IMG/VR virus record: IMGVR_UViG_3300033233_000015
Span: 32,001-96,000 of that record
From: a virus
Direction: 5' to 3' (one strand)
DNA: 64,000 nt
The notes below the pieces were generated by a model. That model made no database searches. It saw nothing but the letters and a program-made list of their open reading frames with translations, and was not told the DNA's origin. This document shows positions 2,844 to 8,768 of the stretch, piece by piece. Numbering within the stretch: the stretch's first letter is position 1; the number at the start of each line of letters is the position of its first letter. The translations under genes and the position numbers were made by a program.

Positions 2844-3181
2844 GCGATTGGGAACCAGAAGAGTACGCGGACGATCCGAAGGTCAACGCGATGCTCAACA
2901 TTGCTGCTGGCATTTTCGCCCTTGCGCGCGCGACCGACGGTCTTCTGTACGCGCTGAAATACAGCAAGGGAGAAGGCATGAGTGTCGCGGAAGCGATCGA
3001 GGTCGGCGCGAAAAACATCGCAGAAGCGATTCAACTCAGCGATCCCGAACCTGTCGAACCCGTAGACGTCGATCCAATCGTTGAGGCGATTTCTGACATG
3101 AAGATCGAACTGTCGACGGAACTGTCGCGCCTGTCGGCGGAACTGTCGGAAGCGATCTCCAAGTCATCGGACGAGCGATGA
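2840..3181 (+). CDS. hypothetical acidic protein
   Basis: coupled ATGA start and stop. Confidence 0.55.
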   Translation: MSDWEPEEYADDPKVNAMLNIAAGIFALARATDGLLYALKYSKGEGMSVAEAIEVGAKNIAEAIQLSDPEPVEPVDVDPIVEAISDMKIELSTELSRLSAELSEAISKSSDER

Positions 3182-4266
3182 CCTCGCGCGTCTATCTTTG
3201 GGAGACAAAAACTACGTCTGAGGACATTTCGAACGGGTCGACGTTTTTTCTGAGAACCATTCTCGATCCGCAGCTCTCTCTCTACATACCCGCGCTGCGC
3301 ACGATGGGATTCGACCCGATCGGCGCCATCTACGACGTGCTACGCAAGCCGGGACAGTTGCCGTCGAACATTCCGCTCAAGGATGCGGACGGAGTGAAGA
3401 TCGTCTTCGACGCAGCAGGCCGGCGCGCGCGCACCAAGGACGGCAAGAAGTGGCGTGAGACGGGCGGCGACGGTCTCTTCTTGCAGACGCGACCCGAGAC
3501 TCCTGAGGAGTACGGCAAGCGTTGTCTCGGCGCCATCGCTGAGGATCCGAATAGGTACTACGCGCGGGCGAAGGTCGTGCGGCTCGAGGCCGACGAGCGC
3601 GAGGCTGCGGCGGACGTGTGGAACACGGCCACGCAGATGCGCGACGCGCGAAGACTGAAGGTGTTTGCGCGGAATCCTGATGCGTGCATGTCTTGGTCTC
3701 GTGAGTGCGACTACTTGCGCGTCTGCGCTGGGCAGGCCGACATCATGGATCCGATTCTGTTCAGGAACGAGGAGGCGCACGTCGAGTTGAAGTTGGAGAA
3801 CGAAGAGAGCGGAACCAATCTGCTCACGCAGAGCGCGATGCGTTCGTACCGTTCGTGCCCGCGCAAGTTCTACTATCGCTACGAGCTTCGTCAGCGACCG
3901 CTCAGCAAAGCGGAGGCGCTGACCACTGGCAACTCGGTACACGAGGCGCTCGACGTCTTCCGTCGCACCTGTTCGCTCGATGCGGCGCTGGTGGCGCTCA
4001 CGACCGACGATCTCTACGTGCGCGCGAAGGAGGCGGCGATGCTCGTCGGCTACGCCGCGCGCTGGCCGACTCCGCGAGGCGTCATCGCAATCGAAAAGCA
4101 GTTCCGCATCCCGCTCATCAACCCCGCTACCTGCGCACCGAGCAAGACGTTCGAACTTGGCGGAAAGGTCGACGCGATCGTTGAGGAGGAGGCCGCGCTC
4201 GCGTCGCTTGAACCGAGTTTGGAGTACGTGCTCGAAGGTTCGTTGAAGGAGGAGGCTGTTCCGTGA
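3178..4266 (+). CDS. PD-(D/E)XK RecB/Cas4-like exonuclease, circularly permuted motif order
   Basis: ETK, QLSLY and C-x6-C-x5-C precede SYRSCPRKFYY, GNSVHEAL, IEKQF and GKVD. Confidence 0.75.
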   Translation: MTSRVYLWETKTTSEDISNGSTFFLRTILDPQLSLYIPALRTMGFDPIGAIYDVLRKPGQLPSNIPLKDADGVKIVFDAAGRRARTKDGKKWRETGGDGLFLQTRPETPEEYGKRCLGAIAEDPNRYYARAKVVRLEADEREAAADVWNTATQMRDARRLKVFARNPDACMSWSRECDYLRVCAGQADIMDPILFRNEEAHVELKLENEESGTNLLTQSAMRSYRSCPRKFYYRYELRQRPLSKAEALTTGNSVHEALDVFRRTCSLDAALVALTTDDLYVRAKEAAMLVGYAARWPTPRGVIAIEKQFRIPLINPATCAPSKTFELGGKVDAIVEEEAALASLEPSLEYVLEGSLKEEAVP

Positions 4267-4814
4267 GCTACGGCGGAACGCATCGACGCAACGATCTGAC
4301 TGGCGAAGTCTTTGGACGCTGGACTGTCGTTCGTCGCGTTGAGAATCGCCAGAGGCCGAGCGGAGTGATGGCGATGTACGAATGCCTATGTGTCTGCGGC
4401 GTCGTGAAGACGGTCCTCGCTCAAACGCTTCGATCCAGCAGTTCGCGCTCGTGCGGGTGTTTGCTGAAAGACGTCGCGGCGGAAATGTGCCGCGCACGAT
4501 CGACGCACGGTCATTCGCGCGGTGGAAAATTGACGCCGACGTTTCGTTCGTGGATTTCAATGCATGACCGCGTCCGATCAAATAATCCGAACAGCAAGCC
4601 GTATTACAAGGATCTTGGCATTCGCGTCTGCGACCGTTGGTCCGACTTCGAGAATTTCTTGAAAGACATGGGCGACAGGCCGTCGCTTCTCCATTCGCTC
4701 GATCGGTTCCCGAATGGCGATGGCAACTACGAGCCAGGCAATGTGCGTTGGGCGACCAGCGTGGAGCAGACCTTCAATCGCAAGAAGAGGAAACTTCCGA
4801 AAGGATCAACATGA
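4263..4814 (+). CDS. HNH homing endonuclease
   Basis: DLTGEVFGRWTV, CLCVCG, SCGC, VCDRWSDFENFLKDMG, SLDR...GNYEPGNVRWAT. Confidence 0.85.
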   Translation: MSYGGTHRRNDLTGEVFGRWTVVRRVENRQRPSGVMAMYECLCVCGVVKTVLAQTLRSSSSRSCGCLLKDVAAEMCRARSTHGHSRGGKLTPTFRSWISMHDRVRSNNPNSKPYYKDLGIRVCDRWSDFENFLKDMGDRPSLLHSLDRFPNGDGNYEPGNVRWATSVEQTFNRKKRKLPKGST

Positions 4815-5716
4815 TCGATCTGAAACGAATCACCGAAGGCAAGCAACAGCGCGAGCCGCGCGTCCTGATCTACTCCGCCGACGGCGTCGGTAAGACGCGA
4901 TTCGCGGCGGGTGCGCCCGATCCGTTCTTCATTGACGTCAATCGAGGCAGCTTCCAGTACGACGTCAAGCGCGTCGTGCCGGAGACGTGGAGCGAAGTGC
5001 TCGAATGGGTCGGCGCCGTCGAGCGCGGCGACATCAAGTGCAAGACGCTCGTCATCGACTCGATCAGTGACCTCGAGCACATCGGCAACGCGGAATTTTT
5101 TCCAAACACGACCATCGACAAATGGGACGGCGGATATGGACGCGGAACGGGCTACGCGGTGACGCGCTGGCGCGAGTTCGTCTCCGCCCTTGAGCGCGTT
5201 TGGAACGCCGGCAAGTCGATAGTCCTGATCGGCCACATGCAGGTGAAGCGGTTCGACGACCCGACCGGAGTCGGTTACGAGCGGTATCAGATCGCTGCTC
5301 GCGAACAACTCGCAGGTCTCCTTCGTCAATGGGTAGACTTCGTTCTCTTCGCGAATCTCGAGGTCGCGCAGCAGAAGGTCGGCGGCGACGTCAAGATGGT
5401 GACGAACGGCACGCGATGGATCCACACGCAGCGATCCCCCGCCTTCGACGCCAAGAGTCGAGGCACGACGCTCTTCCCCGAGAAGGTGCTCCTGTCGTGG
5501 GACGAGTTCGCCAAGGCGCGCGCGGCCGACACTGCGCGCGCGGAGGAGTTGAAGCGAGAGATCGAGTCGATGCTCAAAGAGATCGGCGACAAGAAGCTCG
5601 ACGAGATCGTCAAGGAGTACCTGCGCGCGAACCCCGGCATGGTGGTCGAGGCGCGCAACCGCGTGGCGTCGAAGTTGGAAGAGAAGAGAGCGAGTTCGAA
5701 GGAGAACGACAAATGA
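4811..5716 (+). CDS. AAA_24 / Sak4-like ATPase (recombination)
   Basis: Walker A SADGVGKT, Walker B LVIDS, IVLIGH, AKSR; next to nuclease and SSB-like gene. Confidence 0.85.
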   Translation: MIDLKRITEGKQQREPRVLIYSADGVGKTRFAAGAPDPFFIDVNRGSFQYDVKRVVPETWSEVLEWVGAVERGDIKCKTLVIDSISDLEHIGNAEFFPNTTIDKWDGGYGRGTGYAVTRWREFVSALERVWNAGKSIVLIGHMQVKRFDDPTGVGYERYQIAAREQLAGLLRQWVDFVLFANLEVAQQKVGGDVKMVTNGTRWIHTQRSPAFDAKSRGTTLFPEKVLLSWDEFAKARAADTARAEELKREIESMLKEIGDKKLDEIVKEYLRANPGMVVEARNRVASKLEEKRASSKENDK

Positions 5717-6231
5717 TCAGTCCGGGGAATTACAAGGCCAAGGCAGTCAAGAGCAGCGTGCAGTTCGGCGAGACCGAGCGAGGCAATCTCCAGATCGCGG
5801 TCGATCTGGACATCAAGAACGAGAAGGGGGAGTCGCTCGGCACGATGACGACGTTCCTCTTCTTCACCGACGCCTCGCAGAGCTACTCGTACGAGCGACT
5901 GCGCGCGCTCGGGTGGCAGGGCAAAGGTCCCGAAGAGGTCGACAACATGGAGGGCATCGACGCGAACGAGGTCGAAGTTCGCGTCACGCAGCCAGAGTCG
6001 TACAAGGCGCCCGACGGCACGATGAAGATGGGACAGAGCAAGGTCGAGATCACGACGGGTGCCGGAAAGGTCGTGCTCGCGAAGACGGTCGACGCCTCGA
6101 CGTTCAAGGCTCGATTGAAAGCGCTCGGCGGCGGCGGTGCAGCTCCGTCGGGCGGCAGCAGCGGCGGAGCAGCGGCGCCGCCGTTCATCTTCAACACGAT
6201 CGAGGCGGACGAGCCGTGGTGGAGGGGCTGA
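5713..6231 (+). CDS. single-stranded DNA-binding-like protein (DUF669-like)
   Basis: PGNYKAK start, beta-rich core, Gly-rich linker and acidic/aromatic tail; follows Sak4-like gene. Confidence 0.6.
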   Translation: MISPGNYKAKAVKSSVQFGETERGNLQIAVDLDIKNEKGESLGTMTTFLFFTDASQSYSYERLRALGWQGKGPEEVDNMEGIDANEVEVRVTQPESYKAPDGTMKMGQSKVEITTGAGKVVLAKTVDASTFKARLKALGGGGAAPSGGSSGGAAAPPFIFNTIEADEPWWRG

Positions 6232-6656
6232 AGCAGTGCTTCAAGTGCGGCAAGCATTTGCCGAGACAGGCGTTCTACCGTCATTCAAAGATGGCGGACG
6301 GCCTTCTCGGCAAATGCAAGTCGTGCACGAAAAACGACGCAATCAACCATCGGATGAAGAATCCGGAGCGTATGCGTGAATCCGAACGTGCCCGAAGACA
6401 GACGCCGAAGCGACGCGCGTGGGCGAAGCAATACGAGAACACTCCGGCTAGAAAACGAATCTCGTTTGCCCACCACAAGGTGTGTCAGGCGATCATCGAC
6501 GGAAAACTGGTCAAGAAGCCCTGCGAAGTATGCGGAGACAAGGCCAATGCTCATCACGATGACTACAGCAAGCCGCTCGACGTTCGATGGTTGTGCACCA
6601 CTCACCACGTAGAGCATCACCGAATGATGAGGAAAAAGGCAGAGGACGCAGGGTAG
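6216..6656 (+). CDS. HNH endonuclease with N-terminal zinc finger
   Basis: KQCFKC...CKSC; CEVCG..AHHDDYSKPLDVRWLCTTHH. Confidence 0.85.
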   Translation: MVEGLKQCFKCGKHLPRQAFYRHSKMADGLLGKCKSCTKNDAINHRMKNPERMRESERARRQTPKRRAWAKQYENTPARKRISFAHHKVCQAIIDGKLVKKPCEVCGDKANAHHDDYSKPLDVRWLCTTHHVEHHRMMRKKAEDAG

Positions 6657-6876
6657 GGATCGGCGGTTGAGGGCCGCGCATCGGGTGAAGCAAAGGAGAA
6701 GCGCAGGATCGAGGAGGTCGATTCGTTTTTCGATAAGACCTCGGTAGGCCGCGCGCTTCGAGGAACGTACGGAGATCAAATCTCCCGCAGAGACCCAAGG
6801 TAGCCACTCGGGCTCACGCATCCAGAGGCGCGCAAGCCTCGAACGCCCGGTGCTCGGCTGCTCAGCCGCCGATCCC
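6656..6876 (+). ncRNA. candidate structured non-coding RNA (~220 nt)
   Basis: intergenic; ends pair over ~31 bp (6656-6687 with 6844-6876, several G-U pairs) enclosing 3-4 internal helices. Confidence 0.6.
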
Positions 6877-6896
6877 AACACGACACGGAGGAAGAC

Positions 6897-7253
6897 ATGG
6901 ACGAGATCGAATTGAAGAAGGTCTGCGACGAAATCTTGGTGATCTCGGACTTCCTGAACGCGACGACCGAGGAGACTAACGAGCGCAACGAGGACAACTC
7001 GTACGTCGCCGAGAAGAATCCGACCGATCCGATCCGAGAGCCCGGTGAGCAGTTCGACATCCGTGTTCAGCGCGAACACGGCAAGGCGTGGCAGGCACGG
7101 GTGACGCGATCGGTTCGCCAACGGAACGCCGTAGTTGTCACCGTCGCACGCGGTCTTGTGTCCCTCAGTCCAGCAGCGGCGCTCCTGTCGCTGCTCGACG
7201 TACTGAAGGTGGATCTTCGTCACCGTCGGGATGCGGCGGCGAGGTTCATCTAA
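6897..7253 (+). CDS. hypothetical protein
   Basis: GGAGG RBS before ATG. Confidence 0.55.
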   Translation: MDEIELKKVCDEILVISDFLNATTEETNERNEDNSYVAEKNPTDPIREPGEQFDIRVQREHGKAWQARVTRSVRQRNAVVVTVARGLVSLSPAAALLSLLDVLKVDLRHRRDAAARFI

Positions 7254-7384
7254 GAGTCTCGGGGAGCGTCTTCCTTTCGTTCCTTTCGGAAGTCGCTACG
7301 AGCATCGACGCGCGGCCGATGCCCCGATGATCCGTGCACCTGTCGCCGTGGCGTGGCACGGCAATTTCGACTTCGGAGAGGGCG

Positions 7385-7930
7385 ATGTCAAAGAAACGCG
7401 CGTACTGCTCCCACTGCAAGCACGATGATCACAAGGGCCGCAAGTGCGGCTACGGTGAGGGCATCGGTACGACCGTCGCGGTGTGCGTCTGCGAGACCGA
7501 CAAGCGAGGCCGAGTCGTCACGCCCGCGAGCGTGGAGTTCGTGAATCGCGAGACGCTCTTCGCGAAGGCGCTCGACGATGCGGCGAAGGCCGCCCACGCG
7601 ATGGGCGACGCGCTTGCGCGCGCGCACGAGGATGCTCGTCGCGAAGGGATCGAACGAGCTGTCTTCGGAGATCGCGAATGCACTGGCGGGGGGATCGTGA
7701 AGACCAGCGACCGTAAAACGCAGCGAGATCATCAGATCGAGATCAAGCTCAGCGCCAGTGAACGCCTTCTCTTCAAGGCGGTCACGAAACGACGCGGCTT
7801 CCGAAACATTTCGGAGATGGTTCGATACGTCGTACGCGCGTACGAGGAGGACACCCGCGAGGGGCGACCAGTCTGCACGGGGCAACTCGTTCACGACGCA
7901 TTCAATTCTTGCCCGGTGCACGACGCATGA
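7385..7930 (+). CDS. hypothetical protein with Cys/His N-terminus and RHH-like C-terminus
   Basis: GGAG RBS; QIEIKLSASERLLFKAVTKRRGFRNISEMVR. Confidence 0.5.
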   Translation: MSKKRAYCSHCKHDDHKGRKCGYGEGIGTTVAVCVCETDKRGRVVTPASVEFVNRETLFAKALDDAAKAAHAMGDALARAHEDARREGIERAVFGDRECTGGGIVKTSDRKTQRDHQIEIKLSASERLLFKAVTKRRGFRNISEMVRYVVRAYEEDTREGRPVCTGQLVHDAFNSCPVHDA

Positions 7931-8445
7931 CGACGATGCCTCTCTTGCCCGGCGTCAGCGGCACCGCTCGCTTCAGCGAGGACGGTCGCTACCGCTACAT
8001 GCTCCGTCGCTGGTGGCAGGGCGGTGGCCGTGCCGCCATCTTCATCGGTCTCAACCCGAGCAAGGCGGGCTCGGACGTAGACGATCTCACGATCCGCAAG
8101 TGCATCGGCTTCGCGACCACTTGGGGATGCAGCGAGATCGTCATGCTGAACCTCTTCGGTCTCATCGCGACGGATCCCGAGGAGCTCTTCACCTCGCTCG
8201 ATCCGGTCGGTCGAGAGAACGAGTATTGGGTCGACCAGACGCTCGCGCTGTACGGCGACGACGCCAAATTGATCGCCGCGTGGGGCGCGCATCCGATGGC
8301 GGAGACGCGCGGCTGCAAGCTCGAGTACGCGCTTCGGCCGCGCAAGATGATGTGCCTCGGTAAGACCAAGGACGGATCACCGCGGCACCCGTCACGAATC
8401 GCGTACGCGACTGCGCTCGAGCCGTTTCGCGGAGGTTCGCTTTGA
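7927..8445 (+). CDS. DUF1643 family protein
   Basis: RYRYMLRRWW, GLNPSKA, DDLTIRKC, AWG, TKDGSPRHP. Confidence 0.85.
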   Translation: MTTMPLLPGVSGTARFSEDGRYRYMLRRWWQGGGRAAIFIGLNPSKAGSDVDDLTIRKCIGFATTWGCSEIVMLNLFGLIATDPEELFTSLDPVGRENEYWVDQTLALYGDDAKLIAAWGAHPMAETRGCKLEYALRPRKMMCLGKTKDGSPRHPSRIAYATALEPFRGGSL

Positions 8446-8768
8446 GTCGCAGAAAGCAGTGCGCGAAGTGCCCGTGGCGCGTGGATGTCGATCCGAACGA
8501 CATCCCGAACGGCTACTCGCGCGAGCTTCACGCGGGGCTCGCGTGCACGATCGCGGAGCCAGGCGCGATTCGCGTCGGTGCTCTTCGCATGATGGCGTGC
8601 CACGAGTCGAAGGTCGGCAAAGAGAAACCGTGCGTCGGATGGCTCGCGAACCAACTCGGTCCAGGGAACAACATCGCGCTTCGCATCTGCGCGCTGCGCG
8701 ACAAGAGCCTTGCGAACTTCCGTCTCGTGGGTGAGCAGCACGAGCGGTTCGAGGACACGTTGCCATGA
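8442..8768 (+). CDS. DUF6283-like Cys-rich protein
   Basis: CAKCPWR, ACHES, CVGWL. Confidence 0.55.
   Translation: MSRRKQCAKCPWRVDVDPNDIPNGYSRELHAGLACTIAEPGAIRVGALRMMACHESKVGKEKPCVGWLANQLGPGNNIALRICALRDKSLANFRLVGEQHERFEDTLP

Follow-up and report, generated by a model that had tools for sequence, protein, structure and literature searches.

A predicted 31-bp long-range helix closes an intercistronic element between an HNH endonuclease gene and an orphan gene in an uncultured phage

The 221-nucleotide element located between an HNH-type endonuclease gene and a downstream orphan gene (p118) in this phage genome has a real structure, and its robust feature is a predicted 31-bp long-range helix, here called P1. 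Nearly all of the fold signal of the element comes from this helix. The reading favored here, tentatively and with a probability of roughly 45%, is that the element acts in cis as an intercistronic helix, a long-range duplex of the type cut by RNase III, which would separate HNH from p118. The sequence enclosed by P1 is ordinary, which points to P1 itself as the selected feature.

The source record is an IMG/VR virus of 110,081 bp with approximately 63% GC, an uncultured phage from a sediment metagenome. The stretch analyzed (the window) is 64 kb of this record, and coordinates refer to the window unless stated otherwise. The features of the locus are listed in Table 1. All genes around the element are on the + strand, and beyond p118 there are more small genes, including a DUF1643 gene and a large methyltransferase. 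A 312-amino-acid ORF on the opposite strand is antisense to the homology-supported HNH gene and is taken as spurious. No relatives of p118 were found in viral contigs, and its sole match in a search against 5.8 billion proteins was itself.

The first base of the element is also the final base of the HNH stop codon (TAG, 6654–6656), and the element ends 10 nucleotides before the Shine-Dalgarno sequence of p118, so that it nearly fills the gap between the two signals, as the first-pass annotation had described. It is non-coding: each of the + frames is interrupted by stops, and the GC3 pattern seen in the neighboring genes is absent. A second, independent assembly of the source run gives the identical sequence for positions 5000–8500 (approximately 13x depth, no variants or joints), and the element is therefore not an assembly artifact. 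In a search of sequencing runs, the locus was found (as DNA contigs) in the source sediment run only, and in no RNA run.

Table 1. Coordinates of the genes and predicted RNA features at the locus, in window positions.
Feature	Position	Strand	Basis or detail
Exonuclease	3178–4266	+	
Sak4-like annealing protein	4637–5716	+	
SSB-like gene	5713–6231	+	Without the usual stop after ...PPF (TTC 6184–6186); 14 extra codons (6187–6228) run into the HNH start
Free-standing HNH-type endonuclease, 146 aa	6216–6656	+	phrog_2340 endonuclease, E 1.9e-24
Second very stable hairpin, in the 5' part of the HNH coding sequence	6254–6317	+	−40.9 kcal/mol, z −7.5
Whole stem-closed element, 221 nt	6656–6876	+	MFE, shuffles, genome-wide fold scan
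P1 5' arm	6656–6687	+	16 bp, then 5 bp, then 10 bp; C6677 in 1x1 loop; pair probabilities 0.96–1.00
Interior (core) with alternative folds	6688–6843	+	Shuffles, genome windows, MFE versus centroid
Segment GCGCGCUUC	6751–6759	+	Pairs with 6698–6704 (P2, p 0.43) or with 6825–6833 (p 0.56)
Hairpin GGAGAU-CAA-AUCUCC	6771–6785	+	p 0.93; only robust sizeable core hairpin
Small helix GAG.CCC / GGGCUC	6790–6815	+	p 0.99
P1 3' arm	6844–6876	+	Bulged G6860; U6854 in 1x1 loop
Shine-Dalgarno GGAGGA of p118	6887–6892	+	Read from sequence; 10 nt after helix
p118, orphan 118-aa gene directly downstream of element	6897–7253	+	ATG 6897; coding-type GC3

The + strand of the element has a minimum free energy (MFE) of −120.4 kcal/mol (z −7.63), and none of 200 shuffles folds as well. 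This is the outcome of the folding-energy check that had been proposed with the first-pass annotation. Among 1,099 windows of 221 nucleotides covering the whole 110-kb genome, the element is the top GC-corrected fold outlier (z −4.5). Further fold outliers at genome positions ~24917 and ~106427 are of different kinds.

P1 consists of 31 predicted pairs with a probability of approximately 1.0, and its sole interruptions are one bulge and one 1x1 loop. The three segments of the helix pair 6656–6671 with 6861–6876, GGCCG with CGGCT (6672–6676 with 6855–6859), and 6678–6687 with 6844–6853. Its composition is 16 GC, 6 CG, 3 AU, 2 UA, 3 UG, and 1 GU pairs. These pairings had been picked out by eye, together with the internal pairings GAAGCGC/GCGCTTC, GAGGTC/GACCTC, GGAGAT-caa-ATCTCC, and GAGGC-gcgcaa-GCCTC, and all of them are present in the sequence at the coordinates first given.

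P1 has four non-Watson-Crick pairs. Read as the + strand, every one of them is G.U; read as the − strand, none would be. Under neutral decay of a perfect repeat, four of four wobbles on the sense strand have a probability of about 1/16. The − strand of the element folds at −110.7 kcal/mol (z −5.57), leaving the + strand better by 9.7 kcal/mol. When folded as DNA, the + and − strands have energies of −59.3 and −55.6 kcal/mol (z −4.8 and −4.1). The strand-specific wobbles and the better fold of the sense strand favor a sense-strand RNA over a DNA palindrome, and the earlier interpretation of the wobbles in this direction is retained, with the caveat of a C-to-T bias. When the element is taken together with an analogue in a relative (locus L005, described below), nine of nine wobbles are on the sense strand, which could partly reflect C-to-T mutation bias of the non-template strand.

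No sigma-70-type promoter and no U-tailed terminator are present in the flanks of the element, which makes read-through from upstream probable. The p118 ribosome-binding site (6886–6893) has a predicted unpaired probability of 0.79 when P1 is formed, which falls to 0.39 when the 5' arm is kept from pairing. As a computational hint only, opening of the 5' arm by a ribosome terminating at the HNH stop would partly mask the p118 ribosome-binding site.

The core, the 157 nucleotides between the arms, is a different matter from P1. Folded alone (6688–6844), it has a z of −2.65 against shuffles, and it ranks 71st among 500 genome windows of the same length (z −1.1). Its MFE and centroid structures disagree, and for the helices P2, P2a, and P4 the pair probability is no more than 0.43–0.49 because the segment at 6751–6759 can pair with 6825–6833 instead. 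The two exclusive partners of GCGCGCUUC could constitute a switch, or could be simply GC-rich ambiguity. Stable parts of the core are limited to the GGAGAU hairpin and the 6790–6815 helix. The first-pass annotation had described a long closing helix with a multibranch core. The closing helix stands, while the multibranch core is better regarded as a plausible drawing and not an established fold, given its z values and competing folds. There is likewise no indication of a ribozyme or of a decoy with a specific fold, both of which had been suggested, given a core with ordinary fold statistics and an ambiguous conformation.

Two further functions were considered and set aside. For a CsrA-type sponge, six GGA motifs were counted by hand, which is about the expectation from base composition. 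A small ORF or leader peptide in the interior is not apparent, since no start codon follows the internal Shine-Dalgarno-like words.

The gene upstream of the element looks like a recent insertion, judging from sequence comparison. The HNH protein has 768 homologs, the best non-self match having 57% identity, and its only recognizable motifs are a zinc ribbon and the HNH motif. The GC content of the gene is below that of its neighbors (0.56/0.42/0.69 by codon position). The SSB-like protein ends in ...PPF* in 22 of 22 clade relatives examined, and homology to this phage stops exactly there. The displaced SSB stop and the lower GC are the reasons for regarding HNH as a recent arrival. Between 6184 and 6231, the SSB-like gene has lost the stop after ...PPF and continues for 14 more residues (IFNTIEADEPWWRG), overlapping the HNH start. 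The C-terminal ...PF tip is the normal partner-binding end of SSB proteins, and the 14-residue extension may impair or replace it. An 8-nucleotide direct repeat, CAACACGA (6192–6199 and 6876–6883), brackets HNH and the element; approximately 10% of random zone pairs share an 8-mer, and the repeat is not significant. A group I intron carrying HNH was rejected, as there is no Intron_gpI match at E values up to 10 over 6100–6960 and no downstream junction restores the ...PPF-stop.

The second hairpin (6254–6317) lies approximately 38 nucleotides after the HNH start and is missing at the equivalent place in HNH homologs. It could throttle expression of the endonuclease. With this hairpin on one side and the P1 element on the other, HNH is bracketed by strong RNA structure. 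The element does not appear to travel with the gene. HNH homologs in three contexts in other phages (L028–L030) are directly followed by coding sequence with no comparable element, and a covariance model gave no match beside them. With three homologs lacking the element and the L005 analogue lacking HNH, the proposed HNH-associated RNA did not survive the co-occurrence check.

Searches against known RNA families were negative. Rfam 15, the families of which include 6S, SRP, tmRNA, Y RNA, HEARO, group I and II introns, ribozymes, raiA, and ROOL/GOLLD, gave nothing at the gathering threshold in the 64-kb window. With E values up to 10 over positions 6100–7100, only noise matches to unrelated families were returned. 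ARAGORN found no tRNA or tmRNA genes in the 64-kb window. These results agree with the first-pass annotation, in which the element had not been recognized as a tRNA, tmRNA, 6S, or SRP RNA. A literature search for HNH-linked or stem-closed phage RNAs found nothing specific.

Several systems with outwardly comparable RNAs were also rejected. An IscB/HEARO guide RNA does not fit an HNH protein of just 146 amino acids with zinc-ribbon and HNH motifs only, and there is no HEARO match. The Y RNA/YrlA partners of Ro/Rsr and the msr-msd RNA of retron reverse transcriptases resemble the element in having a long closing stem and a branched interior of similar size. The phage genome differs from these systems in encoding no Ro/TROVE protein, RtcB, or reverse transcriptase (no TROVE, RtcB, or RVT_1 match in 110 kb), and the element has no Rfam match; a host-encoded Ro is possible. 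For an integron attC-like site, the R-box consensus is absent by eye and there is no integrase.

Relatives of the element itself were sought at several levels. Neither the element nor the surrounding 4.4 kb has similar DNA in 50,697 phage records by blastn. Approximately 30 related uncultured-phage loci were collected using Sak4 and SSB as anchors; these share the exonuclease, Sak4, and SSB, and none has HNH, the element, or p118. No homolog of the element was detected by nhmmer and blastn in 26 Sak4-syntenic loci. A covariance model was made from this one sequence with its MFE structure, and its only match across 35 sources and the full records of 14 relatives was the element itself. A core pattern coded as purines and pyrimidines (transition-tolerant) and patterns of both arms found nothing in viral contigs or metagenomes. 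The both-arm pattern gave 83 matches in 185,579 species genomes, all of them chance matches with no interior similarity. The set of homologs called for in order to check covariation could therefore not be assembled by blastn/nhmmer, covariance model, or pattern scans.

Two of these 83 matches are true long inverted repeats. One is in a gammaproteobacterial MAG (L070, 7382–7610) and the other in Micromonospora (L087, 64–287). They are 224–229 nucleotides in length, with perfect terminal inverted repeats of 31–34 bp that begin with the same 11-mer, GGGATCGGCGG. The L070 element forms one near-perfect hairpin with an energy of −208.7 kcal/mol. Both are probably unrelated palindromic elements, and their interiors are unlike that of the element described here.

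The slot following the SSB gene was also compared among relatives. In about a dozen of these, the gap contains (in order) a promoter-like word CGTAGAAT, a short GC hairpin, the 16-mer GGGAAAAGGAGATCCC, and then the start of a UvrD-like helicase gene. The 16-mer is exactly conserved and occurs once per locus (L003, L008–L010, L013–L015, L017, L018, L126, L132, and L133), a degree of conservation beyond what a plain ribosome-binding site calls for. The arrangement of promoter-like word, hairpin, and GGGAAAAGGAGATCCC before the helicase indicates that the post-SSB slot starts a new expression unit. The present phage has neither the GGGAAAAGGAGATCCC motif nor the UvrD-like helicase, and the promoter-like word is not enriched in the window and does not occur near the element. 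In another locus (L027, ~7590–7640), the SSB stop is directly followed by a fragment that resembles the T-arm and acceptor of a tRNA (GCAGGTTCGATTCCTGC GGCGGGGA) and that ARAGORN does not call as a tRNA. It may be what is left of an attachment site, or else a minihelix of tRNA-like form.

One relative, L005, the Sak4 of which is 75% identical, contains an analogous structure in the same slot (7262–7412 of that locus). It has an uninterrupted 27-bp helix with five G.U pairs, a sense-strand energy of −84.9 kcal/mol against −65.3 kcal/mol for the antisense strand, and a z of −5.85. Its interior of 97 nucleotides is ordinary (z −1.27), and its helix ends 18 nucleotides before the ribosome-binding site of a 129-amino-acid gene. 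The two elements show no sequence similarity (alignment z 0.0), and there is no HNH near the L005 element. A −10-like word, GCGTAGCAT, is located directly 5' of the L005 helix. A survey of both strands of the relatives found no long helix specific to the antisense strand. No second analogue accompanies the L005 element, and the resemblance may be coincidental. A broader reading joins the L005 element with the present one in a fast-evolving class of stem-closed cassettes after exonuclease-Sak4-SSB, which would gate the first downstream small gene and of which only the sense-strand helix is kept; a variant would make the excised 157-nucleotide interior a new phage RNA with its own function. This broader reading is considered quite unlikely.

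For the element as an RNase III-type intercistronic helix, the following course of events is proposed. The 31-bp duplex would clamp the 221-nucleotide spacer from HNH to p118 within a sense-strand polycistronic message, and is long enough to be a substrate of host RNase III. Cleavage would split the HNH message from the downstream message. The upstream part would then end in a 3' stem, and the downstream part would begin just before a ribosome-binding site open to ribosomes. Function would not reside in the excised interior, which would be a by-product or a passenger. Together, the element and the 6254–6317 hairpin would insulate the neighboring genes from the intruding HNH and limit HNH expression. 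No RNase III or dsRBD gene of the phage's own was found in its genome, and so the host enzyme would be the one to act. We infer transcription through the element, its cleavage, and any effect on the expression of HNH or p118.

As predicted, P1 provides continuous double-stranded RNA of at least about two helical turns within one transcript, which is the duplex expected of an RNase III substrate. The RNase III sites mapped in Bacillus subtilis mRNAs are long-range intramolecular duplexes of 10–36 bp with up to 505 nucleotides between cuts, and U-G wobbles are enriched in the distal box of these duplexes (PMC11780869). P1 is comparable in its 31 bp, in the 189 nucleotides between its arms, in its location within a message, and in the U-G wobbles that such duplexes tolerate or are enriched in (PMC11780869). 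Unlike the mapped B. subtilis sites, the predicted duplex is phage-borne and is placed exactly between two cistrons.

The RNase III sites of phage T7 (R0.3, R1.1, and others) are compact hairpins of approximately 50–60 nucleotides with an internal loop, and there are many per genome. Like these, the element is intercistronic in a phage message, has no promoter or terminator of its own, and leaves the downstream ribosome-binding site free. It differs in being single, in having a far longer uninterrupted duplex, and in enclosing 157 nucleotides. The much smaller size of the T7 hairpins counts against the RNase III reading, as does an interior of a length not needed for processing. Leader-trailer helices, which release rRNAs and other stable RNAs, are likewise long helices formed by sequences flanking a folded interior. 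The interior in those cases is a conserved functional RNA, whereas the interior here is without sign of selection.

The idea put forward in the first-pass annotation was in essence a discrete trans-acting phage ncRNA of approximately 160–220 nucleotides, for which P1 would be the processing stalk and the interior would serve in protein binding, as a decoy, or in catalysis. P1 does have the geometry of stalks that release stable RNAs, the robust hairpin carries a T-loop-like AUCAAAU loop, the unpaired junctions are purine-rich, and the RNA is in no catalogue. An interior no more structured than ordinary genome sequence and divided between two competing folds is not what such an RNA predicts, and with no homolog in any collection searched, no TROVE/Ro, reverse transcriptase, or RtcB partner in the phage genome, and no promoter or terminator of its own, this explanation is unlikely. 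The same ordinary interior would be expected if the element were a functionless by-product, that is, an inverted repeat made or carried in when HNH inserted, which has had too little time to decay and which the variable spacer tolerates. The recent-looking HNH, with its displaced SSB stop relative to 22 relatives and its lower GC, agrees with this, as does the lack of close relatives of the element, p118, and HNH. A by-product would not be expected to have every possible wobble on the sense strand (p ~1/16 when only this element is counted), to have ends set neatly between a stop codon and a ribosome-binding site, or to be matched by a similar design that arises independently in L005 without HNH. 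It is likewise judged unlikely.

The remaining explanations place the signal in DNA. Bacterial MITEs (e.g., of the Correia/ERIC type) fold into long hairpins once transcribed, and the element could be a MITE or its remnant, the terminal inverted repeats of which merely fold in the transcript. Its size of approximately 220 bp, together with its terminal inverted repeats of 16–31 bp, is typical of such elements, and it lies in a variable intergenic hotspot. It departs from them in being present as a single copy in the genome, in having no target-site duplication beside the repeats as read from sequence (the CAACACGA repeat not being significant), in having no related copies in viral contigs or metagenomes and chance matches only in the 185,579 species genomes, and in a strand-specific wobble bias that is unexpected for DNA repeats. 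A MITE origin is accordingly very unlikely. Least probable is a single-stranded-DNA signal of the replication/recombination module, acting as a priming or initiation site or origin element in the form of the folded + strand. The location within the exonuclease-Sak4-SSB module would suit such a role, and the + strand folds better as DNA as well, but only by a small margin. Iterons are lacking, as is any AT-rich unwinding region beyond a single T5 run; the element is missing from complete relatives that have this module, and the placement suits translation signals and not replication signals.

The element is uncatalogued, but it is of a known kind and not a new kind; it is a single instance and opens no long-standing question. 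It also illustrates how an impressive multibranch fold, when drawn with nothing but the sequence to go on, can owe nearly everything to a single helix. If the reading as an RNase III-type intercistronic helix is correct, the element would be one more case of phages punctuating polycistronic messages with very long intramolecular RNA duplexes. The helix would then apparently wall off an intruding homing endonuclease, which would bear on how mobile nucleases are tolerated in compact genomes.
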